Source: an uncultured virus (IMG/VR IMGVR_UViG_3300046692_000582)
Taxonomy: Duplodnaviria > Heunggongvirae > Uroviricota > Caudoviricetes
Length of the DNA stretch: 64,000 nucleotides
Virus record (IMG/VR): IMGVR_UViG_3300046692_000582
Direction: 5' to 3' (one strand)
This document shows, one piece after another, positions 758 through 26,422 of this stretch. The translations under genes and the position numbers were made by a program. Position 1 is the first letter of the stretch. Each line of letters begins with the position of its first letter. The notes under the pieces were generated by a model, which saw only the letters and a list, made by a program, of their open reading frames with translations, did not search any database and was not told the DNA's origin.

Positions 758-1396
758 CTACACCTTATCCCGTGGGTCTGCATCTGGATTCCAGACGATC
801 CCAAAGTCCTTGCGTCGTACCTTGGCGACCCTTCCATCCGGGTGGTGAAACACCAACCCTTCTTCCTCGTGGCGAATTAGCCACTCGCGGATCGCACTGT
901 ACGAACGCTCAAGTTCCACTGTATCGGCGCCATGGCGGTGCAGCTCATGGCGCTCCAGCCCGTGCGGGTTGAGGCGCACTTTAGGGCCTACCAGCTCGTA
1001 AGTCCCATCTTCCAAGTCGCCAGCATGAGCAAGCGCCTCAAGATGGAGATGGTCAGCTGGATCCCCTTCCCTTACCGGAACCCAACCGGGCCAATGGCCG
1101 GTCTTTTTGTCCGGTGCCGCTTCGCACGGCTCCCATCCTTCTGCGGCTTCCTTGAACATAGCCTCGGTAATCGCCATGTCAGGGTTACGCTTGAAGGAGA
1201 ACAGATGGTGCTTGGACATCTTGCGGGCCATTCGTTTGAACAACCGACCATGTCGCACCATCGCAGCGGAACCGTCTCTTTTGATCGAGGCGATGCCTTC
1301 CCCAGCCAGTACCCACTCGCACCCAGGAACTGGAATGCTGGTGGCCAAGCTGCCGTTTTCACGGTCAATTACAAAAACAGTCTTCATCTTTTTCAT
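758..1396 (-). CDS. RNA ligase-like nucleotidyltransferase (DUF5565/RLIG1-like)
   Basis: Ligase motif I KRDGS, YELVGPK, C-terminal EGLVFHHPDGRVAKVRRKDFG; start placed at MKKMKT behind a GGTG RBS. Confidence 0.7.
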   Translation of the reverse strand: MKKMKTVFVIDRENGSLATSIPVPGCEWVLAGEGIASIKRDGSAAMVRHGRLFKRMARKMSKHHLFSFKRNPDMAITEAMFKEAAEGWEPCEAAPDKKTGHWPGWVPVREGDPADHLHLEALAHAGDLEDGTYELVGPKVRLNPHGLERHELHRHGADTVELERSYSAIREWLIRHEEEGLVFHHPDGRVAKVRRKDFGIVWNPDADPRDKV

Positions 1397-1559
1397 CGGT
1401 GTATCACCTTGGATAATTGGGTAGTTTTCGATTCCGACCCAGTCACCAATCGCTGATGAGGCGATGAATTGATAATATCTAAGCGCCAACGAGATGTCAA
1501 CAGGATAAACCATTTTTAATTTAGATTTCGTGCCTGCCTAAAGCATCAGGGTTCGTTCT

Positions 1560-1748
1560 TTAGGGCTCCTTGGCTTTTTCGACTTTTGGATCGAAATTCC
1601 GGAGGACGTCAGGACGCAAATCAAAAGCCTGATGTTCTTCCCAAGTGACTTCTTTGTAACCCATGCCTAGGGCTTCCAGGGCATCCTTGGTTTGATTTAC
1701 AGTGAGTCGGGCGCGGTGCCGTTCGTGAATAAAAAATCGCTCGGACAT
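1560..1748 (-). CDS. small hypothetical protein (MSERFF...)
   Basis: GGAG RBS upstream of ATG 1748; the longer ORF in the track overlaps the non-coding repeats. Confidence 0.55.
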   Translation of the reverse strand: MSERFFIHERHRARLTVNQTKDALEALGMGYKEVTWEEHQAFDLRPDVLRNFDPKVEKAKEP

Positions 1749-1841
1749 TTTGCACTCCGCAAAAAGGATAAAGGGATTTTGATGGGATGGATCTGGATTG
1801 ATGCAACGAGTGTTGCACCTCGCCAAACCGTTGGAATTAAT

Positions 1842-2082
1842 GAGTTCCCTTACTTGCGCAGCGTCATTCCGGAAGCAGAACTCACATACGACCGGACACA
1901 CTGGCACTGCGCAAGCTCGCCTGAAGACCATCTCGGGCAATCGCCCCACCAATCGCTTGGTGGCCATTCTTTAAATTCGGGAGTTCCAAACTTACCCCAC
2001 GTCGTTCCGAAAACAGAACTCACATGCCTTCGGACGCTCTGGCGCTGAGTAAGCTCACCTGAAACCTCTCAGGCAATAGCCC
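1842..2082 (-). repeat. two diverged ~105-nt direct repeats (1842-1946, 1981-2082); candidate structured leader RNA
   Basis: Shared GAGTTCC, CAGAACTCACAT, CTGGC, AAGCTC and GGCAAT blocks; long stem with compensatory changes. Confidence 0.75.
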
Positions 2083-2108
2083 GTAAATTGCTTTACGCCG
2101 TGCAAAAG

Positions 2109-2137
2109 ATATTAACTAACCAACACCAATTTGTCAA
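2109..2137 (-). promoter_or_regulatory. sigma70 promoter upstream of the tandem leader elements
   Basis: TTGACA-17bp-TAATAT on the minus strand. Confidence 0.65.
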
Positions 2138-2209
2138 TCTTGCTAGTGATCAATTCTCATCAAAACAAGTGCGCCGTGACTTGCACGGCGCGCATCCAAA
2201 CGAATGAAC

Positions 2210-2800
2210 TCAAGCGCCTTGTTCAGAGGTAACTGGCATTTCTTGCTCGCGTTCATTTGCTTTCTTGGCTGCATCACGGCGATCATCCATGCCTCCGGCA
2301 GCGATAATCTGAACGGCGAACATGGCGAGTATTGAAAAGAACTCCTGTGGAGCGCTTCCAGGTTTAAAGGCCATCATCGCCGCAATTGTGAAACTCATCT
2401 GTAGCCATACCATCCACCAGCTTACGGAGCGCAGCTTATTCGCAATATCAGTCTTTTGACCAGAATTGTAGATTTTAATACCAATGCAGGTTGACCAAAG
2501 GCCAACTAGAAGCACTGCAATTTTTACACCCAGAGGGGCGCTATTAAGCACGCCTGCAACACTGTTAAATACGGATGAAATTGCGTTCATGACGTTAACG
2601 AATGCTTCAGCTTTGAAAGCGTTCGCAAGAATTGTAGTAAGCCATTCAAAACCCGCTGCAATGGCGTTACCCAGCGGCTCACGAAGCGCGTACAAGCCGT
2701 AAACAAGGGCAGACACTATAGCGAGAGCGACAAGGCATTTCACCCCTTCTCTGACAACATTAAACTCTTTTGCATTGCTTGGAAGTGTATTGGTAGTCAT
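2210..2800 (-). CDS. membrane protein (paralog of 2813-3466)
   Basis: Several hydrophobic segments; shares KEF..RE..KCLVALA and G.WS.C.GIKI with its neighbour. Confidence 0.8.
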   Translation of the reverse strand: MTTNTLPSNAKEFNVVREGVKCLVALAIVSALVYGLYALREPLGNAIAAGFEWLTTILANAFKAEAFVNVMNAISSVFNSVAGVLNSAPLGVKIAVLLVGLWSTCIGIKIYNSGQKTDIANKLRSVSWWMVWLQMSFTIAAMMAFKPGSAPQEFFSILAMFAVQIIAAGGMDDRRDAAKKANEREQEMPVTSEQGA

Positions 2801-2812
2801 GAGGTATCCTGC

Positions 2813-3466
2813 TTATTTTGTGTGATGTTTGCTGAATGCGATGATCACTTTAAAATTGCTCAGTATTGAATCTTCCAATCCGAGTTTGGCTTTGTATTTG
2901 CCGTATTTGTGAACAAAAATGATCAACGAGACGAACTGAATCATAATTGCCATGTAGTAAACAATGAGCCATTCACCGACCCGTATAAAGACTTTTTCAA
3001 GCATCATGCAGTCAATAACTACAAAGACCAACTGATAAAATCCAAATGAACAAGCAGCTAAAGAGATTGGCTTGATTGCATCGTTCTTATGCTCGGCAAT
3101 GCAGATCTTAATGCCCACGCAGCTTGACCACATCCCCAGGAAGAAAAGGGTCGGTTGAATGAACCAGTAGGAATTACCTCCCCACTCCAACATAAATGTC
3201 ATCAGCGACATGAGGCCTTTGCCAATGATTTTAAATACGCCTTCAAGCGGAGTGGAATTGAGTGCAGCCGGGATGAGCGAAAGTGCTGAATCAAAAAAAT
3301 CAAAAATAAAGCCAAAAATCATTGCCACAAATGTGGTTATCGACCCTTGAAAGGCACAGATTGCAAATACGATCAGTGAGGCCCCTGCAAGAGCGACAAG
3401 GCATTTAAGGCTTTCTTTGCGCAAATCAAATTCCTTTTTTTGCACATTTTCAGCTATCGAAGTCAT
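2813..3466 (-). CDS. membrane protein (paralog of 2210-2800)
   Basis: Multi-TM; shared motifs with neighbour. Confidence 0.8.
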   Translation of the reverse strand: MTSIAENVQKKEFDLRKESLKCLVALAGASLIVFAICAFQGSITTFVAMIFGFIFDFFDSALSLIPAALNSTPLEGVFKIIGKGLMSLMTFMLEWGGNSYWFIQPTLFFLGMWSSCVGIKICIAEHKNDAIKPISLAACSFGFYQLVFVVIDCMMLEKVFIRVGEWLIVYYMAIMIQFVSLIIFVHKYGKYKAKLGLEDSILSNFKVIIAFSKHHTK

Positions 3467-3653
3467 TTTCTAACCTATTTTGAGGTGGTTACTATCAATA
3501 TTCAAGGGTATTCACCGAGAACTTTTAATGACTAGAACATCGGTTATAGCAATAATATATGCCATGATTTATTTTAGTCAATAAATAAGGCGAAGAATCG
3601 CTCTGCGCCTTATTTGTGCTGCTTGTCATGGGTGAAAATGGCTTGAGCCAGCC

Positions 3654-4013
3654 CTACACTGATAGCAGCCAATCAGGACCATGCTCTGCATGGAGGAACC
3701 CAGTCTTGAAGTCTTCGAATACTTGCTCACACCCTTGGTAGTCGGTCGGCGTTGGGAATCCGTGCTTCTCCAGGTACGGGAACACATGGTCAAAAAAGTA
3801 CGTAAGCTTGAATTCTGGCGTCCCCCTGAGGAAGTCTGCGCAACGATAGGAGGTGTCTTTACCGTTGCTGCAACGCGTGATCACTTCTCGCATGAACTGC
3901 TGATGAGCATAAGCAGGCGGGCTGTGGTAGCGCTTTTCACTGAAGTGTTTTGCGTAAACCTCACAGAATTTCTGGAAGTTCGCTTTCGCCGTCATGGTCA
4001 TCAGTTCGTTCAT
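3654..4013 (-). CDS. hypothetical protein
   Basis: 119-aa ORF, operon-like spacing. Confidence 0.7.
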   Translation of the reverse strand: MNELMTMTAKANFQKFCEVYAKHFSEKRYHSPPAYAHQQFMREVITRCSNGKDTSYRCADFLRGTPEFKLTYFFDHVFPYLEKHGFPTPTDYQGCEQVFEDFKTGFLHAEHGPDWLLSV

Positions 4014-4023
4014 GTTCGGGGTC

Positions 4024-4338
4024 TCACTGCTGTACGATGTTGCTGATCAGATCGTCGATGTAATACTCGAAACGATCAATCGAATCGCGGCCCACGTTCC
4101 AGTCCCACGACCCGGTTGTTTCATTCAGGCGACTGTCAGATGTGAGACGTATTTTGGCCCGCAAAGGGTTCTGAAACTGACCCTGAATAGTCTCTTCACC
4201 AATCATGAGGGTCAGATCTTCTACGCGGGTGTTAAGTACGAAGTGGTACGGGTTACCCGCAACAGGTCTAGCGCCAAAGCGCTTCATGACGGCCAGGGCT
4301 CGCGGACGGAACAGACGACGATCTTCTTCAGTAACCAT
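4024..4338 (-). CDS. hypothetical protein
   Basis: 104-aa ORF with GAG RBS. Confidence 0.7.
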   Translation of the reverse strand: MVTEEDRRLFRPRALAVMKRFGARPVAGNPYHFVLNTRVEDLTLMIGEETIQGQFQNPLRAKIRLTSDSRLNETTGSWDWNVGRDSIDRFEYYIDDLISNIVQQ

Positions 4339-4377
4339 TGAGAACTCTCAAAATGCGGTGACAGTGATAGAGGTGTT

Positions 4378-4545
4378 TTAGCGAGCTTTGCGCGACCATT
4401 CCTGGATCAGCAGAGCGAAGTCTGGACGTGGCATGAGCACCAAACTTGAGGCTTTGTTGCTGCGAAGGCCAAGCTCAAGTGCGACCTGAACCATTGTGCC
4501 GCCCGCCCAACCAAACGCTTTGCATGCAAGGTCAAGATTTGTCAT
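4378..4545 (-). CDS. small hypothetical protein (MTNLDLACKAFGW..., 55 aa, below ORF-track cutoff)
   Basis: ATG 4545 with GAG RBS, stop at 4378, minus-strand TTGACA promoter near 4597. Confidence 0.5.
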   Translation of the reverse strand: MTNLDLACKAFGWAGGTMVQVALELGLRSNKASSLVLMPRPDFALLIQEWSRKAR

Positions 4546-4680
4546 AAAAAGACTCGCTGTAGGAAGGCATTTAGTATGACGATATACTGCATTTTTGTCA
4601 AGGAAAACTGCGCGTTACCTATACAAAACACGGTTTTGTTCGGCTGTATAAGCAGCAAAACAAACAACAGAACAAATTTA

Positions 4681-4720
4681 TGTCATTGGTATTGACATGG
4701 CAATTCATTAGCCGTATGAT
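4681..4720 (+). promoter_or_regulatory. sigma70 promoter with overlapping TGTCA-N7-TGACA operator
   Basis: TGTCAttggtatTGACA 4681-4697; TTGACA(4692)-17bp-TATGAT(4715). Confidence 0.8.
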
Positions 4721-4726
4721 TCATCC

Positions 4727-5145
4727 ATCTTCTGCGAATCCTTGTGAGGTTACAGATGTTCCTGATCATGATGATCGGGGCTGTGTTGAGTGAAGTGCGT
4801 CCGGTGACGAAGTCTTCATTTCATTGCACAACTACCGATGCAAGCGGGGTGAGGCCCCACGGACATTGGCGATTACTGCTCGGGGTGCGGCTGTTCGGGC
4901 AGCGCATCCCGCCAGAAAACTCGCCTTAGGGTGATGCCCATGCTTCCGGGCTTCCAGGGGAAGACGCTCAGGCCGACGAGAGAATATCGGCCTCGGATTG
5001 CACCCTCTTGCGCCAAGAGGGCCCGTTATGCGGCCATAGTGCCAAAGAGATGACTTGGCGAGTCCAAGCGCGGGAGAGCCGCGCACGGTCTGATGCGTTG
5101 CACAGGCCTAGGGCAGTCCGTTAACCGGACTGCCCTCGCTTTTTT
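4727..5145 (+). ncRNA. candidate large structured ncRNA (~420 nt), family not recognised
   Basis: Promoter upstream, about 15 consecutive hairpins, intrinsic terminator downstream, no credible ORF. Confidence 0.7.
5110..5145 (+). terminator. intrinsic terminator
   Basis: AGGGCAGTCCG-ttaac-CGGACTGCCCT followed by cgcTTTTTT. Confidence 0.8.
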
Positions 5146-5260
5146 AGAGAGTTCTGCCCAATTGCTTTTCCATTGGAATTGCCAAGTGGACTGGTCTTTC
5201 GTGGTGTAGGGCTTTGGCCTATAGTGCCTGCCCAAGACCCTTTAGGCAGGAGCCTTTGAG

Positions 5261-5674
5261 ATGAGTAGTGATTTGAAAGATTCGTTGATTCCAGAACACT
5301 ACGCGGCCCTGTTTGCCCGGCGCGTACTGAACTTTACCGACGAGTCGATCAAGGAGCACTTTGATCAGGAGCCGCCCTACGAGGGGCAGACGCTGATCCT
5401 GTCGATGCAGCAGCACAACATGAACCGCTATCGTTTGGTCAAGGTGATCAACCCAGCCAGCGGTCGCCAGCGTCGAATTATCATCAATCACTCCGAATCC
5501 TTTGGTGGTGCGTCTTACTACCGAAGTGGCAAAAGCTGCTATATGCCCAAGAGCCAGACGAAGTTGTTGCCGTTCGTTAAATCCGTAGCGCAACGACTGT
5601 CGTTTGATCGGGACACCGTACTGTCGGATGACGCGCTCAAAGAGCTGCTGTACAGCAACGTCACCGCAAATTGA
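5261..5674 (+). CDS. hypothetical protein
   Basis: 137-aa ORF with AGGAG RBS. Confidence 0.75.
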   Translation: MSSDLKDSLIPEHYAALFARRVLNFTDESIKEHFDQEPPYEGQTLILSMQQHNMNRYRLVKVINPASGRQRRIIINHSESFGGASYYRSGKSCYMPKSQTKLLPFVKSVAQRLSFDRDTVLSDDALKELLYSNVTAN

Positions 5675-5701
5675 ATTCAAGACATTGTGAGGAAGGTGCG
5701 C

Positions 5702-6034
5702 ATGGCTCAAATTAAGAACCCGAAAAAAGGTCAGCTCATTTGGACTGTCGTTAACGGCGAGGTTTGCGAGCGCATCTATGCTGGCCTGTCACCTGATAAC
5801 TTCGGCCATCTGTTGCAAGTCCCCTCTCAAGCGATCCAGGGCAAGCGTTCTCCATATTATGAGGCGCACCTGATGGCCTATGAGAAAAAGTCGGAAATTC
5901 TCGCCATTCACCTCGAATCCGCAGAGCGTGCTCTGAAGGCGGCGAAAGCCGATCTGCACCAAGCATCGTATGCGCTCAGCGAAGCATTGCTCGCTGAGAA
6001 TCAGGCAGCCTCTGGCCAGCAGGAGTTTGACTAA
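5702..6034 (+). CDS. hypothetical protein
   Basis: ATG 5702 after GGAAGG. Confidence 0.7.
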   Translation: MAQIKNPKKGQLIWTVVNGEVCERIYAGLSPDNFGHLLQVPSQAIQGKRSPYYEAHLMAYEKKSEILAIHLESAERALKAAKADLHQASYALSEALLAENQAASGQQEFD

Positions 6035-6035
6035 C

Positions 6036-6299
6036 ATGACCACCAACAGCGATGCCTTTTTTGCCCGCTTTCTTCACGAAACCCTGAAGAAGCACCACCC
6101 TGATTTTCCCGTCACCGAGGTCAAGGGGCGTCGCATCGGCGCCGGGTCTCAGCGCGTCATCCAGGTGTTGCACGGCAATGGGCTTTTCGCGCAGTTCCCC
6201 TTTCCTCGAAAAGGGCTGCATGCCGGTGAAGTGCATGCTTTTTTGTATGCTTCGGCATGCAACATGCTGAAACTCACTCCGGCACCCGAGGCCCTGTAG
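6036..6299 (+). CDS. hypothetical protein
   Basis: ATG 6036 after AGGAG, directly after the previous stop. Confidence 0.7.
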   Translation: MTTNSDAFFARFLHETLKKHHPDFPVTEVKGRRIGAGSQRVIQVLHGNGLFAQFPFPRKGLHAGEVHAFLYASACNMLKLTPAPEAL

Positions 6300-6443
6300 A
6301 TTCAGGCGTTCACAGCCAAATGTTCGCGGGTATCTCGGTAAGCCGGGATACCTTTTTTGCGCAAAATAAATGTCACTGTAATTTACACTTACTCATCATT
6401 CTTGTACAATTTCCCCATCGAAACGAAATGATGAGGGCAACAC

Positions 6444-6734
6444 ATGTCGCGCACTTCCAAAGCAGCTCAGTGGTTCGGCGTTCAGTATCGCAGCATGCAT
6501 ACGGCCATTCACAATGTGGTGGTATTTGAGACTCGCGAAGTGGCTCAAACCCTCGGCGAGATGCTGAATGCTGAGGTGGACATGGCTGAGGCACAGGACG
6601 TATTGGTGATGCAGTATGGCAAAGAGGCTGGCGAAGCGAAGGCATCGTTTGAAATTAACTACCGCAACCCGCCAACCGAATACCGCGAGCAGGTGCTGCT
6701 CATCGTCAACGACGCTATTCCTGACGTTTACTAA
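6444..6734 (+). CDS. hypothetical protein
   Basis: GAGG RBS; promoter TTTACA(6382)-17-TACAAT(6405). Confidence 0.75.
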   Translation: MSRTSKAAQWFGVQYRSMHTAIHNVVVFETREVAQTLGEMLNAEVDMAEAQDVLVMQYGKEAGEAKASFEINYRNPPTEYREQVLLIVNDAIPDVY

Positions 6735-6789
6735 TGCCGGTGTGGCTGCCCTTCCAGGGCAGCCCTCCCCGTGTCTCTCGGGAGCCATC

Positions 6790-7005
6790 ATGCCCACTCA
6801 AGAGTTCATAGCAGATACGCCCTTCACGCTGCACGAAAGCCGCCTGGAGCTTTCTGGACAATTGTCCTATCAGATATTTGTCATTGACGATGATGGCGCA
6901 GAGAGCGTCTTTGGGATCGTGACAGCCCAAGATTTTGGGTCGGCCATTGATTTTGCCAAAGAAATAAGTGCGTCTACCGTTTCAGATGCAGTTCTCTGCG
7001 CCTAA
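6790..7005 (+). CDS. small hypothetical protein (MPTQEF...)
   Basis: GGAG RBS. Confidence 0.6.
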   Translation: MPTQEFIADTPFTLHESRLELSGQLSYQIFVIDDDGAESVFGIVTAQDFGSAIDFAKEISASTVSDAVLCA

Positions 7006-7082
7006 TCGTTATTCAATCCTCCTTATTTGATTGTTTCGACAAAATCACCAATAATAATAAAACAATAACAAAAGGCTACTTC

Positions 7083-7397
7083 ATGTCAGTACATCAATCG
7101 AGCATCATCAAAAATCCGGATCTTCACGACGCCCAGGCTGCCTCAAAACTGCCTAATGGCCCGGCAGTTCCTGACTGGTATACGCTTTCCGCTTTGCAGG
7201 TCGGCGTGTGCGTCAAGGTGGGAGTCGGCACGCACGGTCAAGGCAGCGAAGCTTTTTGGGTAGAGCTTCAGGAAGTAACCCCTTCCTTGATGGTGGGCAT
7301 CATTGTGAACAATCTAAAATTCACCTCTATCCACGGTCTGGAAGCTGGCGATGCAATCACTGTCCAGAAGGGGAATGTATTCCAGGTACATGCGTAA
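7083..7397 (+). CDS. hypothetical protein, possibly DUF2314-like beta fold
   Basis: EAFWVEL...GIIVNN...GL..GD.I pattern; family call is weak. Confidence 0.6.
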   Translation: MSVHQSSIIKNPDLHDAQAASKLPNGPAVPDWYTLSALQVGVCVKVGVGTHGQGSEAFWVELQEVTPSLMVGIIVNNLKFTSIHGLEAGDAITVQKGNVFQVHA

Positions 7398-7493
7398 GGA
7401 ACCACGGGGCCCATCCCCTTGAAGATCCTTCAAGGGGTTTCCCCTTACCCACGACTCCGCAGCAGTTGGAGTGATGGCAGCTTGTCAGGCTTC

Positions 7494-7691
7494 CTATTCA
7501 GGGGTCATCAACGAGGCCTCGGCCTGCTCAACGCACTCTTCATAGCTGTCCAGCGCGGCAACATCCCAGTGTTCCCATTCAGCTTCTGGCTTTTCGCTGA
7601 CGATGCGAATGAGGTAAGCCCACTCGCCCTTCTCGTCTAGAAAGACGCTCAGCTCGCGACCATTGAGTATTTTCTTGTACGGTTGGCTCAT
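7494..7691 (-). CDS. small protein identical in type to the middle domain of 36746-37336
   Basis: KKILNGRELSVFLDEKGEWAYLIRI...SYEECVEQA. Confidence 0.75.
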   Translation of the reverse strand: MSQPYKKILNGRELSVFLDEKGEWAYLIRIVSEKPEAEWEHWDVAALDSYEECVEQAEASLMTPE

Positions 7692-7727
7692 TGAGATATT
7701 CCTTTAATCAGTTATTGCATGATTGAA

Positions 7728-8087
7728 TCAGTGCAGGGTTTTTCTGTTGAGTGCGAACTCAAGTTGTTCCAGACTTTGAACGCGGCGAACGCCACCTTGA
7801 AGCCGCGCTTCATCCATGGCAAGCAGAACTTCCTGGCCGTAGACGTAAATGTATTCTGACACGGGGTGATTGAATGCATTGGAGGATTCTATAAAGCCTT
7901 TGTCTCCAAACAAATCAACCTGCGTGAGCATTTGCACCAGGATCACGGGCAACTCAACGATCCCGGTCACCATATGCACCCGGCATTCGCAGCCAAAAGA
8001 TGTCTCTTGCCCCTTGGCGCGATACTCCACAAAAGCATAATCGCCATCAATGGTGGTCGGGATGTGCAGTTGGTGCGAATTCGTCAT
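7728..8087 (-). CDS. hypothetical protein (family with 50115-50477 and 50598-51071)
   Basis: C.V...TG...EYIYVYG..V.L...SLEQL..AL motif. Confidence 0.7.
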   Translation of the reverse strand: MTNSHQLHIPTTIDGDYAFVEYRAKGQETSFGCECRVHMVTGIVELPVILVQMLTQVDLFGDKGFIESSNAFNHPVSEYIYVYGQEVLLAMDEARLQGGVRRVQSLEQLEFALNRKTLH

Positions 8088-8198
8088 CGCTATTCCTTTG
8101 TAAAGACACTTTAGCGTTATCCAATCACTCTATTAGAGCCTTTGGCCTATGCTCAAAAGGTTCTCATATGCGTTCTAAGATTGGAAGTTGTGGCGAAT

Positions 8199-8474
8199 TT
8201 ATTCCCCAGTCATTTTCGACACAATGCCAAAAGCCTTGAGGTTCAACAGGATTTCACGTTGTTGATCACTCAATTCAGAGAAGGTTGTTTTGTTTTCTGA
8301 GCTTACGCCTTGCGTAAGGATGATCCCTGCGGCTCCTGCTTTTACTGAGTAATTGATCCTTCCGAATTGACAGGGACGGCTGGTGACCCGGTAATCCGGG
8401 TATTGTGCCTTCAGGCGTGCGATCCAGCCGCCTGAATCAGGGTGGTCCTGGCTTCGCATAAGGACGGCAATCAT
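8199..8474 (-). CDS. hypothetical protein
   Basis: ATGA overlap with the upstream gene. Confidence 0.65.
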   Translation of the reverse strand: MIAVLMRSQDHPDSGGWIARLKAQYPDYRVTSRPCQFGRINYSVKAGAAGIILTQGVSSENKTTFSELSDQQREILLNLKAFGIVSKMTGE

Positions 8475-8710
8475 TGGTCGACGTCATCCATGTTGGGAGC
8501 ACTGTCAGCATCTGGTTCAATAGTTGATACCGTGCCGTGAGTCGGCCACAGCGGATCTGGTTCATGCACATCTTTGCAGTGCATGAGTTCGTGTACCTGA
8601 ATGGCTGCCGTGTGGCGGTTTGCTGGTAGAGAACCGTCGCCTCTGAGAAAGCTCGTTTGAGCTTCAACCACCAATTCAGAGTTCACATTTTTGGGGATGC
8701 TCATGAGCAT
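8471..8710 (-). CDS. hypothetical protein
   Basis: AAGGA RBS. Confidence 0.55.
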   Translation of the reverse strand: MLMSIPKNVNSELVVEAQTSFLRGDGSLPANRHTAAIQVHELMHCKDVHEPDPLWPTHGTVSTIEPDADSAPNMDDVDQ

Positions 8711-8748
8711 TATCCTTTTCGGTCATGCTGGTCGTGGATCCGATATTA

Positions 8749-8985
8749 CTACTTCCAGGCAACGTTGAGTGCAGGAAAGAGTGGGGAAATGGCTTCAATG
8801 GCGCTGACCAATTCAGCTTCAGAGGCGCGGCTCCTGGCAAACTGCTTGGCCAAATCCAAGACGGTTGTCAGGCTTGAATTGCCATGATCTTCATCATTTG
8901 ACGGGAGTCCATTGCTAAGAATGATCTCGTCGACAGCTTGCATCAGAGCGCGTATGGCTCTGAACATGCTTTCGTTTTTGTTCAT
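8749..8985 (-). CDS. hypothetical protein
   Basis: AGGA RBS. Confidence 0.65.
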   Translation of the reverse strand: MNKNESMFRAIRALMQAVDEIILSNGLPSNDEDHGNSSLTTVLDLAKQFARSRASEAELVSAIEAISPLFPALNVAWK

Positions 8986-9071
8986 GGCTGGAGTCCTGAA
9001 GTGGCGTTAGTTTTGGGGGCTTGCAAGCGCTCACGCGATTGATACGAGAGCGCCTTGGGCGGGTTATCTGT

Positions 9072-9476
9072 TTATTCTTGCAGGAATCTGGCGAGGTTGG
9101 CGGCTGCGATCCAGTCGGCATAAGCGAACTGGCGTTCGGTGGGTGCGTGTTCAACCTGAGCCCAGCCGTTGTTGTGATCAAACTTGTATTTCTGAGTCGC
9201 ACAGGTCATGCGATTGTCCAGCCAGTTCAGCACAGCTTCACGGTTGAAACGGCCTTCGCGTGGAATGACTCCATCGTTCAGGTCGAATGACAAGTCTTTG
9301 GTCAGGCTCATCCAGGCATAGTCGAGCTTGATGGGCATTGTCTTGTTCTTGACTTGGCTGGTGCCATTATCAGTGTCAAAGCCATGCTTTTTCACCATGG
9401 CTGCAACATAGTCATCGCAGTAGCTGATCAGGACTTTTTTGCCGAACCGTGCGCGATTGAACATAGTTGAACTCAT
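9072..9476 (-). CDS. hypothetical protein with internal duplication (paralog of 24688-25089)
   Basis: Two F.....G..QV....(LD/FA)YA units; promoter TTGACA-17-TATAAT at 9508-9536. Confidence 0.75.
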   Translation of the reverse strand: MSSTMFNRARFGKKVLISYCDDYVAAMVKKHGFDTDNGTSQVKNKTMPIKLDYAWMSLTKDLSFDLNDGVIPREGRFNREAVLNWLDNRMTCATQKYKFDHNNGWAQVEHAPTERQFAYADWIAAANLARFLQE

Positions 9477-9507
9477 TGTGCTGTTCCTAGCCTTTGAATA
9501 TGGATCA

Positions 9508-9547
9508 ATTATAGAGACGAAGAAGATGCGTGTCAATCAAATTGACA
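9508..9547 (-). promoter_or_regulatory. consensus sigma70 promoter with operator TGTCAatcaaatTGACA (9531-9547)
   Basis: TTGACA-17-TATAAT on the minus strand. Confidence 0.85.
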
Positions 9548-9674: not shown

Positions 9675-11258
9675 TCAGTCGAGGTAGGTGGCAACCACCT
9701 TCAGGCCGCGTGATTGTGAAAGATCAGCGTTGCCAACATTGCTTGAAAAGCAGAATCCGTGTCCCGCCTGCACAATTGTGGTGATGGTTGTGTCGATGGC
9801 ACAGTCGATGTACCGACCACTCCATCCTTGTGCACTACCCACCTCGATACCATCAACGTATAGGAAGGTGTTACCAGCACCAGTGGCTGTGATCAGGGAA
9901 GTTCTGGTCATGGTTTGGCAGTAGCTGTGCGATAGGTTGTCGCCAAAGTGCACCAAGGTAACCGGAGTCGAGGGAGAAATACTGCCCGAGCTTCTCCACA
10001 CGTTTGCTTGGCAAGACAATGTTTTACCGTTGCCATCACGCGCCAATGCACCAATCGTTGGGCAAAAAGTTCCCTCGCCCACGACGTTTCCTAGGTAAGC
10101 TCCGCCATACATATTGGTGCTGCCAGCCACGTTCAGGTTGGAGTACATGTTGGCCACGCCATTGACGTTAACTTGTCCATTGAGACTCAATGCACCTCCT
10201 TCTCCAGTAATCGCGGCGCTGGTGATGGTGTGCAGTTTAGAGTCTCCATTTGGATCGGCAAAATAGGCCGCGTTGTCTCTATCAACGAACCTTGAGGCTG
10301 TTACTGAGCCGCCAACCACCACATTATTGGTCACATTAATGTTTTCTGCGTTAACGATATTGAACCGGCTTTGGCTACCAGGGTCGACATAAAAGTTGGC
10401 ATTATTCCGGTCAACCATGCGGTCGGCGTACAGCGTTCCCATAATTTCAGCGTCACTGTCGACCACCACGCCATCATTCAGAAACGTTGGCAGTGCGCCA
10501 GTTTTGTTGCCTAGTGTCAAATATGGACCTTCAATATTAAATAGTTTTGAGACGTTCCAAATTTCCCGATTTGCATCTGGGTTCCCCGATTTAAATTTCA
10601 AATTATTATTCATGGTATTGCTACCATCTGTTCTCAACCATGTGTCGTCAGAGGCATCGTTGGACGTGAACATGAGAATTCGTCCAAGATGGCCCTGGCA
10701 CTGTGTGACGCTCTCAGTGATACAGAATCGTGCTGTTCCGTCCGTGGTGCGAATGGTCGGGGTAAAGTTCAGTTGTGAAGCACTACCAGCCACAATTGCA
10801 GCCAAACCTGCCAAATCACCACGCTGCTTCTTGGCTATTTTCAGCTCAGACATGGTGGTTCTTGTATTCATGATGTTGGGCGCTGAAGACGTAATTTCAG
10901 TCGTAAACGACAACCGACCATAAGTCGTTAGTTGATTGGTGTCTTGCAGGAATGTGCATGGAACAAAGCCGTCATTGGCCACATCTTTTGGAATGGTGCC
11001 TCCACAGGAAGTGGATTTCAGCCAATCGACACCTACCTTCGTTCCTAAGTGGGAGGCATACGTAGCCTCTCCGGCATAGTGAGACACATAATCTCTAACG
11101 CCATTGTTGAACTTTAAAAGTTCACCTCCTAAGGCACGGGCTTTTTCTTGGTCTGATCTTAACGTCGACTCTTGAAATCCAATCATGGCGATAACCACGG
11201 AAATCACGGCAACCATCATAATTTCAAGTAATGTGAAGCCCTTCTGTTGTTTTTTCAT
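9675..11258 (-). CDS. pilV: PilV-like type IV pilus tip adhesin, paralog 1
   Basis: Prepilin motif KGFTLLE; LRTDGSNTM; GKTLSCQ..WR junction, then unique C-terminus. Confidence 0.75.
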   Translation of the reverse strand: MKKQQKGFTLLEIMMVAVISVVIAMIGFQESTLRSDQEKARALGGELLKFNNGVRDYVSHYAGEATYASHLGTKVGVDWLKSTSCGGTIPKDVANDGFVPCTFLQDTNQLTTYGRLSFTTEITSSAPNIMNTRTTMSELKIAKKQRGDLAGLAAIVAGSASQLNFTPTIRTTDGTARFCITESVTQCQGHLGRILMFTSNDASDDTWLRTDGSNTMNNNLKFKSGNPDANREIWNVSKLFNIEGPYLTLGNKTGALPTFLNDGVVVDSDAEIMGTLYADRMVDRNNANFYVDPGSQSRFNIVNAENINVTNNVVVGGSVTASRFVDRDNAAYFADPNGDSKLHTITSAAITGEGGALSLNGQVNVNGVANMYSNLNVAGSTNMYGGAYLGNVVGEGTFCPTIGALARDGNGKTLSCQANVWRSSGSISPSTPVTLVHFGDNLSHSYCQTMTRTSLITATGAGNTFLYVDGIEVGSAQGWSGRYIDCAIDTTITTIVQAGHGFCFSSNVGNADLSQSRGLKVVATYLD

Positions 11259-11619
11259 TGAGGTTAACCAACTTTTATTATTATGTGCTTGTAGGCATCG
11301 GACCATTTATCATTGCTTATAATAGCACTTGAAGGAGGCTTATCGATACATATTATTCGATTAAAGAATCGTAATATTTTGAGATTGTAACTGTAGTTCT
11401 ATTCGGTGGCTGGCAGCTCACCGGATCATAAGGGTTGGTGGGTCAAGCATATTTATTTCATGGCTTATTGTACGCGTAACTGCTGTTGACGAAATGGTAT
11501 TCTATTGATGATTGTTTTTCACAGAAGACTCCCACACAGGATTGGCAATGTTATTAGAAGCTGGCGCATAATAAATCTGTTCCCGCGCCATAATAATCCC
11601 CTCATTGGATTGGTAATTC

Positions 11620-13128
11620 TTAGTCAAGACACATTGCTGACAGATCCATTGTAAGTCCGTAGCCATTATAGAACGCCTGATAACTGTACTTGCCTTCGTC
11701 GTCGGGACCAGCTGTGCGATAAACGACACCGTGTGGCTGTGCTCCCGCAATTCTTGAAATGGCGCAATAGGTGTGTGTGCCTATATCGACTCTGCCTGAT
11801 CCTGGGTTAGAGTTAACCACAACGTATTCCGTTGAATAGAGCTTTGGCGCCGCAGATCTCCAAATCCAAGATTGGCAAGAAAGGGTTTTCCCTAACGAAT
11901 CTCGTCCAATATCGCCTATCTGCGCACATGCTGAGCCTTCTGACACTACATTGCCTAAATAGGCGCCGCCATACAGGCTGGATTTTCCACCAACATTAAG
12001 GTTGGAGTTAATAGTTGTATTGCCATTCACAGTAACCTGGGCGTTGAGAGCCAGCGCTCCACCCTCTCCAGTGATCACGCTGCTGGTAATAGTGTGCAGT
12101 TTTGAGTCGCCATTAGGATCAGCGAAATACGCTGCGTTGTCACCATCAACGAACCGTTTTGCTGTCACGGTGCCGCCAGCCACAACATTGTTGGTCACGT
12201 TAACGCTTTCGGCATTGACGACGTTAAATCGGCTCTGGTTACTTGGATCGACGTAGTAATTTGAATTATTGCGGTCAACCATTCTGTCGGCGTAGAGGGT
12301 TCCCATAATTTCAGCGTCACTGTCAACGACCACGCCATCATTCAGAAATGTTGGTAGAGCACTGGTTTTGTTTCCCAGTGTCAGGTAGGGCCCCTCAATG
12401 TTGAATAGTTTGGAGACATTCCATATCTCCCTATTTTGATCCGAATTTCCGGGTTTGAATCTCAAATTATTATTCATTGTATTACTGCCATCCGTTCTCA
12501 ACCACGTATCGTCAGAGGCATCGTTGGAGGTAAACATAATAATGCGTCCAAGGCTGCCCTTGCATTGCAGAACACTTTCCGTAATGCAAAATCTCGCTGT
12601 TCCATCTGTACTACGAATGGTTGGAGTAAAATTTAGTTGTGAGGCACTGCCTGCCACAATAGCAGCTAGACCGGCCAAATCACCACGAGGTTTTTTAACG
12701 ATTTTCAATTCCGACATCGTCGTTTTGGTATTCATGATGTTTGGAGCTGAAGATGTTATTTCAGTAGTAAATGACAATCGACCGTAGGTGGTTAACTGAT
12801 TAGTGTCTTGCAAAAACGTACACGGAACAAAGCCGTCATGGGCAACATCTGTTGGGATTGTGCCACCGCATGAGGTCGATTTTAACCAATCAACACCGAC
12901 CTTAGTTCCAAGATGGGATGCATATGAAGATTCTCCAGCATAATGTGAGACGTAATCTCTAACGCCATTATTGAATTTCAATAATTCTCCACCAAGCGAG
13001 CGCGCTCTTTCTTGCTCCGATTTGATTGTCGCCTCTTGAAAGCCAATCATTGCAATAACGACTGCGATGGCGGAAACCATCGTAATTTCAAGTAGGGTAA
13101 ATCCTTTTTGTTTTTGTTGTTTTTTCAT
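11620..13128 (-). CDS. pilV: PilV-like type IV pilus tip adhesin, paralog 2
   Basis: KGFTLLE; N-terminal body near-identical to paralog 1; different C-terminus. Confidence 0.75.
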   Translation of the reverse strand: MKKQQKQKGFTLLEITMVSAIAVVIAMIGFQEATIKSEQERARSLGGELLKFNNGVRDYVSHYAGESSYASHLGTKVGVDWLKSTSCGGTIPTDVAHDGFVPCTFLQDTNQLTTYGRLSFTTEITSSAPNIMNTKTTMSELKIVKKPRGDLAGLAAIVAGSASQLNFTPTIRSTDGTARFCITESVLQCKGSLGRIIMFTSNDASDDTWLRTDGSNTMNNNLRFKPGNSDQNREIWNVSKLFNIEGPYLTLGNKTSALPTFLNDGVVVDSDAEIMGTLYADRMVDRNNSNYYVDPSNQSRFNVVNAESVNVTNNVVAGGTVTAKRFVDGDNAAYFADPNGDSKLHTITSSVITGEGGALALNAQVTVNGNTTINSNLNVGGKSSLYGGAYLGNVVSEGSACAQIGDIGRDSLGKTLSCQSWIWRSAAPKLYSTEYVVVNSNPGSGRVDIGTHTYCAISRIAGAQPHGVVYRTAGPDDEGKYSYQAFYNGYGLTMDLSAMCLD

Positions 13129-13436
13129 CAGGTTAATCCCAACCTTGCCTTGTGTGGTGTTTTTACAGCAAGCTTCCCCGAACTATAAGCGTCATTACAA
13201 AAAGCATAGCAACGTCAAATTCAGCTTAAGCAAAACAAATCACATACCTTTGTCATCTTAAAATAAATACTACTCATGATCATTCTTATAATGACACATA
13301 TATATGCTTTAATAAATAGCAAATTCAAAACACCAGTGTTGCCAAGTACCCGGTTCCTTCGCAGTTTGGCGAAAATCCAACTGTTATGCCAGAAGGACTA
13401 TCTCCGCTGTTAGCTGTCCGCATACAGGATTGGCAA

Positions 13437-14942
13437 TTAATTAAACTTCGCACAAAGAGTTGATGTCCAGTTACCTGTGCTATAGAAACCACTCAGATTT
13501 TTTCCTGAAGTTCGACCGGCACCTCCACCTGAGTCCATGTCCCAGCCACCAATTGCGCGCCATTCACCTGGCGCGGATCCAGAGCAGCGCGCAGTGCAAT
13601 CCGCATCAGTACCTACTGTGTTACCAGTTCCAATGTTGCATAAATCACTTATTCCTCCGCCTCCATTAGCGCGCCACACGCCGGATTGGCAAGAAAGTGT
13701 TTTTCCTGTCCCGTCTCGGCCAATATCACCTATCTGTGAGCAGCCAGTCCCTTCGGTCACGACATTGCCCACGTAAGCGCCACCGAACAAATTGGTCTTT
13801 CCGCCTACGTTAAGGTTAGACGTGACGGTTCCATCACCATTAACGGTAACCCTGGCATTCACAGACAAGGATCCGCCTTCGCCAGTGATGGTGCTGCTGG
13901 TGATCGTGTGAAGCTTGGAGTCCGCATTGGGATCAACAAAATACGCAGGATTGTCGCCATCGATGAATTGCTTGGCGGTTATCTTGCCTCCTACAACCGC
14001 GTTATTTGTTACATTGAGGTTGTCGGCATTTACCGTGTTAAACCGGCTTTGGTTGCTGGGGTCGACATAATAGTTCGCATTTTTTCGATCCACTATTTTA
14101 TCGGTGTACAAGGTGCCCATGATCTCAGCATCGCTGTCGACGACTACGCCTGCATTCAGGAACGTCGGCAGGGCGCCCGTTGCATTGCCCAGCGTTAGAT
14201 AGTCGCCATCAATATTAAATAACCTTGAGACGTTCCAGATTTCTCGGCTCTCATCGGGGCTGCCTGATTTGAACCTGATCCTGTTGTTCATGGTATTGCT
14301 GCCATCCGTCCTCAGCCACGTATCATTGGAGGCGTCATTGGAGGTAAACATCAAGATCCTCCCCAGGCTGCCCTGACACAGCGTTGTGGTCTCCGTAATG
14401 CAGAACATTGCCGTACCATCAGTTGTCCGTACTGTGGGCGTGAAGCTCAGTTGAGAGGCGCTGCCAGCCACAATGGCTGCCAGTCCGGCTAAATCACCAC
14501 GGGCTTTTTTCACAATCTTTAATTCAGACATGGTGGTCTTGGTATTTATCACATGGGCTGCTGGTGAGGTTATTTCTGTCGTAAAGGACAATCGGCCATA
14601 GGTGGTCAACTCCTTGGTGTCTTTTAAAAAGCTGCATGGGAGAAAGCCGTTAGATTCACTTTGCGGAATGTCTCCTCCGCAAGACTGTGACTTCAGCCAG
14701 TTAACGCCTGTTTTAACCCCAAGCTTGGATGAATACGCAGTGTCCCCGGCATATTGCGAAACATAATCGCGAACGGCATTGTTGTACTTTAAAAGTTCGC
14801 CACCCAGCGACCTAGCTTTTTGCTGCTCCGATTGAATTGTTGATTCTTGAAAGCCGATCATGGCCATAACCACAGCCACAGTCGCAACCATCATTATTTC
14901 AAGTAACGTATATCCGTTCTTCTTATTATTATTGATTTTCAT
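13437..14942 (-). CDS. pilV: PilV-like type IV pilus tip adhesin, paralog 3
   Basis: NGYTLLE; LSCQSGVWR junction typical of shufflon PilV; Cys/Gly-rich tip. Confidence 0.75.
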   Translation of the reverse strand: MKINNNKKNGYTLLEIMMVATVAVVMAMIGFQESTIQSEQQKARSLGGELLKYNNAVRDYVSQYAGDTAYSSKLGVKTGVNWLKSQSCGGDIPQSESNGFLPCSFLKDTKELTTYGRLSFTTEITSPAAHVINTKTTMSELKIVKKARGDLAGLAAIVAGSASQLSFTPTVRTTDGTAMFCITETTTLCQGSLGRILMFTSNDASNDTWLRTDGSNTMNNRIRFKSGSPDESREIWNVSRLFNIDGDYLTLGNATGALPTFLNAGVVVDSDAEIMGTLYTDKIVDRKNANYYVDPSNQSRFNTVNADNLNVTNNAVVGGKITAKQFIDGDNPAYFVDPNADSKLHTITSSTITGEGGSLSVNARVTVNGDGTVTSNLNVGGKTNLFGGAYVGNVVTEGTGCSQIGDIGRDGTGKTLSCQSGVWRANGGGGISDLCNIGTGNTVGTDADCTARCSGSAPGEWRAIGGWDMDSGGGAGRTSGKNLSGFYSTGNWTSTLCAKFN

Positions 14943-17908: not shown

Positions 17909-18129
17909 TGGAAACTACCGTAGGTTATTTGCGAGTAATAATAGGTAAACAGATTCACTTTGTCAATGTGCCTGTCAGAAGCATCGTTGCAAAAATAATT
18001 TAATAACGATGAAATTGACATTGACACCACTACCTTCCAAGGGTATTATTTGTCATGTCAGCTTCATGACAGTCCTTTCAGGTTGGACGATACAGCTCGC
18101 TTTAATACTGACCATGAAAGGATATATTT

Positions 18130-18543
18130 ATGAACAAAGATCAATGTGTTGCATGCGGTTTTATCGGCACTGTGGCCTTTACCAATCGCACCTTCACCAT
18201 CAAGGTGAAGCACCTTAGTCGTGACGTCCATGGGATTAACGGTGTGGAGTGTCCCAAGTGCGATGAGGTTGTTTATCCAAACTCGGGTGAGGACGACAGT
18301 GTGGACCGTTACATTGAGGTGCAGGATGGCCTCGTTCACCAGTATCGTGGTGAAGAATTTCGTCGGATTCGGCAAAAATTGAATTTGACGCAATTGCAGG
18401 TTGTCCAGGCATTTGCAGGTGGCGGGCACAATTCAGTGTCTCGTTATGAAAAAGGCATTACCCCAATCCCCTCACCACTGTGGGTTTTGATTCGATTGTT
18501 GGATCGTAAACCTGAATTGCTGGCGGAATTGATGCCCTCCTAG
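18130..18543 (+). CDS. MqsA-family zinc-ribbon + XRE HTH protein (orphan antitoxin/regulator)
   Basis: CVAC...ECPKCDE zinc motif; RRIRQKLNLTQ...SRYEKG HTH; promoter TTGACA(18021)-17-TATTAT(18044); terminator 18551-18588. Confidence 0.85.
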   Translation: MNKDQCVACGFIGTVAFTNRTFTIKVKHLSRDVHGINGVECPKCDEVVYPNSGEDDSVDRYIEVQDGLVHQYRGEEFRRIRQKLNLTQLQVVQAFAGGGHNSVSRYEKGITPIPSPLWVLIRLLDRKPELLAELMPS

Positions 18544-18601
18544 GGCAAATAAAAACCGGCTGGTGGTTATCCCTCAGCCGGTTTTTTATCGTGCTTTTTA
18601 C

Positions 18602-18919
18602 TCAAGCATGCTGCTCGCCAGTTGCTTCTGGCGCTTGTGCAATGTTCAATTCATATACATCATCCCCATACTCACGCGAGTAGGTGGCCGGAAAGGCGCC
18701 TTGACAGGACTCATCCACGATGTTGTACCAGCAGGAATGCTCGCCATCGTTCGCTGGCGTTTTCTTGACCCAGTGTTGAGTAGGCGTACTCAGGTATGCT
18801 CGCTCGCCATACTCGCGCAAAGCCTTCATGAACTCATGAGGGTCGTGATGGCCCTTGCTCATGTAAATCAGTTCGTTATCGGTGTGAACTGCTTCAATCT
18901 TTAGTGGGTAGTTTTTCAT
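18602..18919 (-). CDS. hypothetical protein
   Basis: AAGGA RBS; SKGHHD motif. Confidence 0.75.
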   Translation of the reverse strand: MKNYPLKIEAVHTDNELIYMSKGHHDPHEFMKALREYGERAYLSTPTQHWVKKTPANDGEHSCWYNIVDESCQGAFPATYSREYGDDVYELNIAQAPEATGEQHA

Positions 18920-19841: not shown

Positions 19842-20609
19842 TTAGGCCGTTTGGGCTGACCAGTTGACCGCTTTGTCGAAGTCTTCCTGGCTCATCTGTA
19901 CGCCGACTCGGCAGATGCGCAAGAAGGCCGAACGAGCTTCATCTGGCGTGGCGTTTTCGATGACGGTAATCGCCGTTCGCGCATCACGGAAGGCGTCAGC
20001 GCACTTGTCATGAAATTTGATCATGTCTTCAACCTGATCTTCGGGATAACCCTTCACATTTGTCCACATATCCCAAGATTTTCGAATCAAGTTCATGTTC
20101 ACGCTATGAGCGTTGGGTTGGCAGGAAAGGAGGCTCCAGGCTGGTAGGCGAAGGCCGACATCAGCTTCGGCCACGGGCACAAATTTGATCGAGCGGCTTT
20201 CATAGTCAAGCACCAGTCTTTGACCGCTCAGCCATGTCGCTGTTTCCGCAACCCCGACCTCAAAGGTCAGGTTGTTGAAGTCGGCGTTCATCAGCCACGC
20301 CAGAGTCGCCAATCGGTTCTGGCCATCGAGCAGTAGCTGAGTGGGGGTGTAGGCCTTGCCGCTATCGTCTTGCGCCAGCACCGGTCCCAGACGACCTTTG
20401 GCGACCTTGCTCAGATCAGCCTTGGGACCGGGCTCCCACAGAAGGAAAGAGCCTACCGGAAAGCCGGACAGGATCGAATCGCACAGCGCTTCAACATCGT
20501 CCTTAAGCCACACATATGGACGCTGCATGGCTGCTGGCAGCATGCGACCCTGCATGGCATCGGTGAGCAGCGAAAGCAGGAAGCAGGTGGTTTGAGTGAT
20601 GCGCATCAA
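19842..20609 (-). CDS. DUF262 (GmrS-like, ParB/Srx fold) stand-alone protein
   Basis: QRPYVW, DSILSGFPVGSFLLW, LLLDGQNRLATL motifs. Confidence 0.85.
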   Translation of the reverse strand: MMRITQTTCFLLSLLTDAMQGRMLPAAMQRPYVWLKDDVEALCDSILSGFPVGSFLLWEPGPKADLSKVAKGRLGPVLAQDDSGKAYTPTQLLLDGQNRLATLAWLMNADFNNLTFEVGVAETATWLSGQRLVLDYESRSIKFVPVAEADVGLRLPAWSLLSCQPNAHSVNMNLIRKSWDMWTNVKGYPEDQVEDMIKFHDKCADAFRDARTAITVIENATPDEARSAFLRICRVGVQMSQEDFDKAVNWSAQTA

Positions 20610-26083: not shown

Positions 26084-26422
26084 TTATTCGGGAATCAGAT
26101 TTTCGATCTGTTCGATGTCTTGAAGGGTCATGCCTGCCGGAAGATGGTATTGACGGGCAATACGGTGCTGCAAATTTTGCCATCTTTTGTCCAGAAGAAC
26201 CATTGCATCGTAGACTTCTTGGGACGGATACAGCTGAGCTGCTGCCCCCATAGTTGTCTGCTGGCGACCTGTTTCTTTGAAAAACTTGCTGGAGCCAATG
26301 TGCAAAATGGTGCGACCGACCTTATCAATGGTCACTTCACTTTTCCGGCGTTGAGCGACCAAATACACAGTATCGCCTTCTTTCAGATCGTTGAGCCATT
26401 GAGTGCTGGTTTGCTGTGACAT
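26084..26422 (-). CDS. hypothetical protein (LKEGDTVY beta-barrel-like N-terminus)
   Basis: AGGAG RBS; promoter/operator 26448-26486. Confidence 0.75.
   Translation of the reverse strand: MSQQTSTQWLNDLKEGDTVYLVAQRRKSEVTIDKVGRTILHIGSSKFFKETGRQQTTMGAAAQLYPSQEVYDAMVLLDKRWQNLQHRIARQYHLPAGMTLQDIEQIENLIPE

Follow-up and report, generated by a model that had tools for sequence, protein, structure and literature searches.

GOLLD and ROOL, two structured RNAs of mobile elements, are about 500–800 nt long. A different kind of mobile-element RNA is represented by the put RNAs of phage HK022, which PMC9378689 describes as about 70 nt long, built of two stem-loops, located downstream of PL and PR (putR about 270 nt from its start site) and active with no protein factors, and by canT of the conjugative element Tn916, presented in PMC11658703 as a processive, most likely cis-acting RNA antiterminator. 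Here, we describe an RNA locus in a 64,000-nt stretch of DNA from an uncultured tailed virus (IMG/VR record IMGVR_UViG_3300046692_000582), referred to below as the window. We consider it highly probable that positions from about 4728 to 5145 on the + strand form a stand-alone transcription unit whose RNA of about 418–420 nt is made and accumulates, that this RNA is a chimera of a ~215-nt plasmid-lineage 5' part, a 141-nt six-helix core and an extra hairpin with a strong terminator, and that the core belongs, as a divergent copy, to a hitherto uncatalogued family of structured RNAs found in Pseudomonas-type temperate phages. Shown are the features of the sequence, the abundance of the RNA in one RNA library, the covariation within the family and the membership of the core in it.

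Layout and expression of the locus

The unit and the first gene of the operon that follows it are laid out as follows.

4692–4720, + strand: sigma-70-type promoter (−35 TTGACA at 4692–4697, 17-nt spacer, −10 TATGAT at 4715–4720)
4728–4942, + strand: lineage-specific 5' domain of ~215 nt, with local hairpins that have neither homolog nor folding-statistics support
4756–4929, + strand: candidate 57-codon ORF (ATG at 4756, stop at 4927–4929)
4943–5083, + strand: conserved core, matched over its full length by the model of the phage RNA family
4951–4955/4959–4963, + strand: core helix H3
4964–4976/4987–5001, + strand: core helix H4, with loop CGAGAGAAUA at 4977–4986 and a CG bulge at 4994–4995
5003–5010/5014–5021, + strand: core helix H5
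5022–5031, + strand: core junction CCCGUUAUGC
within 5032–5043, + strand: core helix H6
5054–5058/5064–5068, + strand: core helix H7
5069–5073/5079–5083, + strand: core helix H8
5087–5108, + strand: extra hairpin GGUCUG/CAGGCC between core and terminator, read from the sequence and outside the family model
5110–5146, + strand: intrinsic terminator (11-bp stem 5110–5120/5126–5136 with 8 G-C pairs, 5-nt loop)
5261–5674, + strand: first gene of a co-directional operon, 137 aa, function unassigned, 115 nt 3' of the terminator

A first-pass annotation, made from the letters alone, had drawn a promoter, a run of about 15 stems and an 11-bp terminator with a U-tract here, and these elements are present as written: the promoter at 4692–4720 (+) matches at 11 of 12 positions and is the top promoter-like site within 3500–7500, each listed stem can be found, and the terminator stem (5110–5136) is followed by six T at 5140–5145. 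Judged from the promoter, transcription would start near 4727–4729. The annotation had also given the promoter a repeated operator, which we could not confirm: the word in question, TGGCAATTC, present in the promoter and at 5176–5184, has three exact copies in the window and shows no enrichment when mismatches are tolerated, with 33 copies found against 27 expected and 38 against 31 in a second count. The predicted fold offers no evident antiterminator pairing that would compete with the terminator at 5110–5145. A scan of the interval between the terminator and the gene at 5261 (5147–5260) found no consensus promoter, so the operon that starts there is a possible target if the RNA acts in cis; a further terminator (6328–6353) lies 3' of this operon (5261–6299), and the next unit, which begins at 6444, is preceded by a promoter-like site of its own (6382–6410).

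Three public runs carry the stretch, and we compared them with the window over 3600–6400. A second rhizosphere metagenome holds 4852–5141 unchanged, and a peat metatranscriptome contains a relative of the whole locus. There, the contig over 4813–5071 has a depth of 91.4 at 97% identity (8 differences in 259 nt), compared with depths of 2.1–5.2 and differences of 3–10% for the contigs of flanking genes (5.2 and 2.9 for the downstream genes, 2–2.8 for the divergent upstream genes), all of these being rough contig depths of a relative in one RNA library, a measure that gives neither transcript ends nor strand. With the RNA at 91 against flanks this low, most of it does not extend to the genes that follow. 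Most of the flanks have diverged more than the RNA, whose conservation equals or exceeds that of coding sequence; four substitutions are shown, three at unpaired positions of the predicted fold and one at a loop-closing pair. Positions 4634–4727 and 5104–5197, which have no RNA-contig cover, give no evidence on the transcript ends. A second window-like core, with 35 of 39 bases identical when aligned at 4958–4996 and with other flanks, occurs in runs X1 and X3, on a 10.6-kb DNA contig in X1 and, in X3, an RNA library, on a contig of 272 nt whose depth is 240; given that depth, a relative of the plasmid-type RNA is very abundant in X3.

Folding statistics for the RNA are mixed. Folded whole, the RNA scores z −2.62 on the + strand and −4.29 on the − strand, and in a survey of 850 window-strands of 426 nt its region comes second on the − strand (z −3.10), with about −2.0 for the + strand; the segment that holds the tmRNA is comparable, at −2.75/−2.38. 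The density of perfect hairpins, 6 per 450 nt against a window mean of 1.49, is tied for the window top and is not unique. Because the 5' 215 nt by themselves show no significant folding advantage over shuffled sequence on the + strand (z −1.26; 25 of 200 shuffles did equally well), the 15 stems go only partly beyond chance: the claim of a highly structured RNA is borne out for the core (4943–5083), which has comparative support, and finds no support for the 5' domain, which has no homologs. The minimum-free-energy fold of the single sequence pairs 4963–4975 with 5086–5099 and does not reproduce family H3/H4, and for this reason we did not use it for the core. Elsewhere in the window, other 426-nt segments fold equally well, at 32251 (−), 18001–18900 (+), 14851 (−), 37951 (+) and 6151 (+), with composition-corrected z of −2.8 to −3.1, and these may hold further structured RNAs or clusters of terminators.

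Folding energy does not decide the strand. We place the RNA on the + strand because of the terminator, the match of the family model to one strand only and the G-U pairs conserved in the family, which would be A-C on the other strand; one pair is U-G in 32 of 36 rows of the family alignment, and several further pairs are G-U. The earlier suggestion that G-U pairs favour the + strand, drawn from the window alone, agrees with these family-wide pairs.

A structured RNA family of temperate phages

Searches for a catalogued counterpart or a full-length homolog came back empty. An Rfam 15 cmscan (all 4227 families) of 4400–5400 returned no match at the gathering threshold, in keeping with the first-pass view that the RNA is not tmRNA, RNase P, 6S, SRP, an intron or an Rsm sRNA; the only window matches at gathering are tmRNA and HEARO, both elsewhere, and at E≤10 the RNA region drew only chance-level snoRNA and P18 matches (best weak score 16.6 bits against a threshold of 46). 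A blastn search with 4560–5260 found nothing in 72,556 plasmids (PLSDB) and 50,697 phages, an exact 27-mer had no match in metagenome contigs, and neither BLAST nor nhmmer nor a model brought up a homolog of the 5' domain when plasmids, phages, 401 Pseudomonas genomes and related megaplasmids were searched. On four plasmids with the homologous 137-aa gene the RNA is not beside that gene, neither pPL1 nor the P. frederiksbergensis plasmid carries it anywhere, and it is missing from the P. serbica and PLMAX genomes; a search of two related genomes and two plasmids with family model R3 was likewise empty, a result that carries little weight. The 401 Pseudomonas genomes gave only matches of 30–40 nt to the RNA, in 6 of the 401. 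Four of these six short matches were rejected as chance, since they lie inside fpg/mutM-like coding sequence.

The family came to light through marginal BLAST matches in two Pseudomonas genomes, which have a hairpin and the sequence around it, in noncoding DNA, in common with the window. With one of these loci as query, the element was found in 6 of 401 Pseudomonas genomes, and 55 more share only a 39-nt 5' module (tallies that include the unpublished genomes G101 and G152). A degenerate hairpin pattern then located 41 IMG/VR loci; each of these, and each of 4 genome loci, matches model R1 over its whole length (45 of 45 sources). The same pattern in metagenomes gave 62 loci, some of them the same contigs as in IMG/VR, with 33 end-to-end matches to model R2; none of the 62 resembles the window copy beyond H4. 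The check for homologs by BLASTn and nhmmer proposed in the first-pass annotation yields no full-length relatives, and it is by covariance model that the core finds its place in a phage family.

The family numbers about 60 distinct sequences, and covariation strongly supports it as a structured RNA. In an alignment of 36 sequences, 92.8% of cells are paired and 22 of 37 pairs change on both sides, a level reached by 0 of 500 shuffles and compared with 27–42% in slid controls. For a longer model, the pairs changed on both sides number 35 of 46. Both alignments were fitted to the models and therefore lean towards pairing. MAFFT with RNAalifold recovered only 17 pairs from the 36 sequences because the variable hairpins were misaligned, hence our use of model-guided alignments. 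Read 5' to 3', a family member consists of a Shine-Dalgarno sequence with a 2–4-codon mini-ORF, one or two hairpins, H3, H4, H5, a junction, H6, H7 and H8, so that each core holds six helices (H3–H8). The mini-ORF at the 5' edge is mostly AUG-AAG-stop (AUG-AAG-UAA and variants) in both subfamilies (for example L066, L067 and L080). H4 forms a long hairpin, interrupted by a CG bulge and capped by the loop CGAGAGAAUA (consensus CGA(G/C/A)AGAAUA), H5 is variable, the junction reads CCCCGAUAGCGG, and H8 is almost invariant, with a GCCGG/CCGGC stem of which three of five pairs never vary and a loop ending in GUAA. The family is absent from Rfam 15 and matches nothing catalogued (no match at gathering in six loci, L012, L013, L020–L022 and L024, and none at E≤1 for L020 and L024), and its functional class may nevertheless be a conventional one. 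No description of the RNA was found in the literature, where the supplements of the motif surveys PMC5737381 and PMC2864571 could hold an unnamed equivalent; within that scope, and by its absence from Rfam, the RNA is undescribed, as had been proposed.

Models R2 and R3 were built from phage and prophage sequences only, without the window sequence, and both match 4943–5083 over all 143 of their positions (1–143), R2 with 43.4 bits (E 1.8e-8) and R3 with 50.7 bits (E 1.7e-10), E-values that are rough owing to a shortened calibration. For R3 this is the sole match in the window, on one strand, and unrelated loci totalling 188 kb score 13.3 bits at best. In the window copy, H3–H8 are all retained in the same order, with compensatory differences; its H4 loop, CGAGAGAAUA, is identical, the CG bulge and the CCCG..GCGG junction are present, and 11 of 13 H4 pairs are standard. 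The copy nevertheless scores below every phage member (43–51 bits compared with 64–156 bits). Its H8 reads CGCGG-GAGAG-CCGCG and lacks the family's GCCGG/CCGGC stem and GUAA-ending loop, and the string GUUAACCGG occurs in the window's terminator hairpin instead of in H8. Also lacking are the Shine-Dalgarno sequence and AUG-AAG-stop mini-ORF of the phage members; an ATG at 4940 opens a frame of 38 codons, and the ORF upstream has 57. Unlike the phage members, which sit inside temperate-phage operons, the window copy lies on a megaplasmid-like replicon and comes with its own promoter, an unrelated 215-nt 5' domain, an extra hairpin and a terminator.

In phages, the family occurs inside mRNA, co-directional with the next gene, either in the early-left region after a cI-like repressor or in the late region before terminase, and its neighbours are unrelated. 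In a lambdoid prophage, the element lies ~700 nt 3' of a promoter-like site that follows the terminator of the cI-like repressor gene, and 5' of a LuxR-type gene. In the other subfamily it sits between a holin gene and a phrog_1924 gene, followed by terminase, and ends 12–25 nt 5' of the phrog_1924 start codon. All five genomes checked have one copy per phage. Among 57 distinct phage-type members, 6 have even a weak terminator-like site within 200 nt and 51 have none, and in phage L100 a terminator-like site lies 3' of the gene after the element. A tblastn search with 16 ORFs of window 758–9536 found no match in the fetched phage and prophage loci. The varied sites, unrelated neighbours, single copies and lack of shared ORFs fit a movable cargo.

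Two further features of these phage regions deserve mention. The cultured phages in our collection carry only the 5' module of ~40–50 nt and no core. The 39-nt module, a hairpin ending in a Shine-Dalgarno sequence, is found at L024 1615–1660 (−) and in 61 of 401 Pseudomonas genomes (G101 and G152 included), is up to 100% identical across genomes, and repeats before small ORFs in prophage early-left regions. In L100, 6371–7354 encodes a phrog_536 regulator, a promoter-like site (6878–6906) and a strong terminator (6962–6989), then a holin gene, an arrangement that resembles a Q/pR'-tR' late switch.

Replicon and neighbouring genes

The 137-aa protein encoded next to the RNA has 20 relatives, several of them on Pseudomonas megaplasmids of 0.37–1.17 Mb, which makes a Pseudomonas megaplasmid setting plausible. 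The first-pass idea of a plasmid-encoded RNA therefore survives in part: the replicon is Pseudomonas-megaplasmid-like, and the 3' ~140 nt are common to temperate phages and are no plasmid invention.

Several other genes of the window bear on RNA or on genetic conflict. A complete tmRNA gene at 44453–44841 (−; 185.7 bits) has an unusual tag, ANDETFGVALAA, and lies on what appears to be a megaplasmid; plasmid-borne tmRNA is uncommon. An IscB-omega RNA unit spans 35068–36692 (−), in which a HEARO RNA (36459–36692, 89.6 bits) adjoins a 479-aa protein with RRXRR and HNH domains. Among the unannotated small genes, 758–1513 (−), 3 kb from the RNA, encodes an RNA ligase-like protein (phrog_14301 at 3.2e-44, Pfam RLIG1). 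A protein with a Phage ProQ C-terminal-like domain (26084–26584, −) is a possible RNA chaperone and a possible partner for structured RNAs; as a common partner of the family it appeared in 0 of 5 family-bearing phages, a weak result given that the control was equally silent. Conflict-system genes include an MqsA-type antitoxin (18130–18543), a GmrSD N-terminal domain protein (19842–20609) and an AEP-TOTE primase fused to a helicase (46366–48741). Finally, three tandem proteins of ~500–543 aa at 9675–14942 (−) share an N-terminal prokaryotic methylation (pilin-type) motif and have nothing else recognisable.

Proposed modes of action and resemblance to known RNAs

Our preference, a tentative one, is for a stand-alone RNA that acts in trans through its folded core, because the window copy is a complete unit with an RNA well in excess of the message downstream, no structure competes with its terminator, and the module is cargo-like in phages. 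The folded core would be the active part, working at the RNA level, and to judge from the invariant C[GAGA]G-AAUA hairpin loop and the conserved junctions it may bind a protein or another partner. Such an RNA would be an accessory, "moron-like" cargo, held inside operons by phages and expressed from its own promoter by the plasmid. Against this, the phage copies are embedded in mRNA and one subfamily ends 12–25 nt from a start codon, which makes them look like cis elements; few phage members have a terminator-like site, no consensus promoter was found for the gene at 5261, no partner protein is linked to the RNA, neither the window nor 5 phage genomes yielded a partner complementary to the H4 loop, the window H8 lacks the family's invariant stem and loop, and the depths come from a relative in one library. 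A cis-acting leader, the main rival and in our view rather unlikely, would have the core let polymerase read through 5110–5145 (and 6328–6353) into 5261–6299, by put-like processive antitermination or another operon-internal cis control, and the abundant RNA would then be, with the same reserve, terminated or processed leader. The order of promoter, RNA, strong terminator and co-directional operon with no consensus promoter found in 5147–5260 speaks for such a leader, as does the position of the phage members, always in long operons upstream of genes of any function. Early-left and late operons are also the two kinds known to depend on antitermination, L100 has its terminator-like site after the next gene, and HK022 put (PMC9378689) and canT of Tn916 (PMC11658703) supply precedents. 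Yet the downstream depths of 5.2 and 2.9, next to 91 for the RNA and barely above the 2–2.8 of the divergent upstream genes, are so low that read-through is at best minor in that sample. Phages carry one copy each at non-equivalent positions, the promoter-terminator pair beside a regulator in L100 suggests protein-mediated late control, the unit at 6444 has its own promoter-like site at 6382–6410, and six helices in ~140 nt differ from the two stem-loops in ~70 nt of put.

The remaining accounts concern what kind of molecule the locus makes; the sponge, scaffold and ribozyme roles suggested in the first-pass annotation are conjectural. It is improbable that the transcript is mainly mRNA for the 57-aa peptide (4756–4929), with the core as a structured 3' UTR of a dual-function RNA. 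The ORF has a GAGG (4746–4749) six bases before its ATG, takes up the 5' domain and ends 14 nt short of the core, the phage core is likewise preceded by a Shine-Dalgarno sequence and a 2–4-codon mini-ORF, and the one visible substitution in the ORF (4890) is synonymous, though a single synonymous change has no weight; a search of 5.8 billion clustered proteins, however, returned the window's own sequence as the sole match, and the peptide is without a domain, having only an 11-residue hydrophobic start. The ORF is probably not a conserved protein, and the overlapping 61-aa ORF has no relative (its single match, 1 of 1, is the window itself), in line with the first-pass dismissal of the overlapping ORFs as spurious. 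Known self-cleaving ribozymes often lie between cistrons with variable neighbours, as this element does in phage operons, and its multi-helix junction with invariant unpaired nucleotides and the short, core-centred contigs in which the RNA is abundant (265 and 272 nt) would suit a self-cleaving or RNA-processing element, possibly of a new ribozyme class, that cuts polycistronic phage transcripts and in the plasmid copy yields a processed, stable fragment. We regard both parts of that proposal as decidedly improbable: no known ribozyme family matched, contig ends do not show RNA ends, and no cleavage site can be inferred. A DNA-level element such as a single-strand origin or a transfer or packaging site, or else a chance run of hairpins, draws on a hairpin density and folding z that are high, if not unique in the window, and on the stronger z of the − strand; it is largely refuted, and extremely improbable, since the family helices are kept by compensatory changes and conserved G-U pairs (A-C on the other strand), the model matches one strand only, the region is strongly enriched in an RNA library, and a promoter and terminator frame it.

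Returning to the trans-acting RNA that we tentatively favour, one more speculative variant starts from H4 (4964–5001), which resembles the 23S sarcin-ricin loop in its ACGAGAG, a GAGA tetraloop closed by a C-G pair; phage members further share CGGAGUG with that loop. The 20-nt sarcin-ricin rRNA motif is exact in 7 copies in genome G002. Unlike that loop, the window copy lacks the flanking bulged-G motif and shares only 7 contiguous bases with it, and model R3 gave no match at the 23S locus, so we treat this likeness of sequence as a lead only. On this view, which seems to us very improbable, phages and this megaplasmid would use the core in trans as a decoy against a host factor, with the invariant C[GAGA]G hairpin imitating the sarcin-ricin loop and so sequestering either a defence-system toxin aimed at rRNA or a translational GTPase; if true, it would be an RNA-only counter-defence or takeover device common to phages and plasmids.

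Whichever reading holds, one RNA module appears in two formats, inside phage operons and as a free-standing, highly expressed megaplasmid gene, and the latter is a clean experimental handle because promoter, RNA and terminator form a single movable piece, with which action in trans could be told from action on the RNA's own transcription complex. An RNA antiterminator would be a novelty among the mobile elements of Pseudomonas, and so would an RNA cargo aimed at a host or defence target.

Set beside known RNAs, the window RNA recalls the Rsm/Csr sponge sRNAs in its string of hairpins ending in a terminator and its Pseudomonas setting; unlike them, it has 5 GGA in 419 nt (8.1 ± 2.4 in shuffles), only one of them in a hairpin loop, and no Rfam Rsm match. 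The first-pass annotation had likened it to GOLLD and ROOL, a kinship that neither size nor architecture shows: no match to these RNAs or to HEARO (the IscB omega RNA) was obtained here by cmscan, and the conserved part measures only ~140–230 nt. Like put and canT, it is a mobile-element RNA upstream of terminators and co-directional genes; unlike put, with which we found no sequence or structural likeness, its core has six helices in ~140 nt, and unlike both, its depth suggests that most transcripts stop at the terminator. With GOLLD, ROOL and HEARO it has in common that it is a structured noncoding RNA of mobile elements found by comparative analysis, and it adds a structured RNA family to the small set of mobile-element orphan RNAs.
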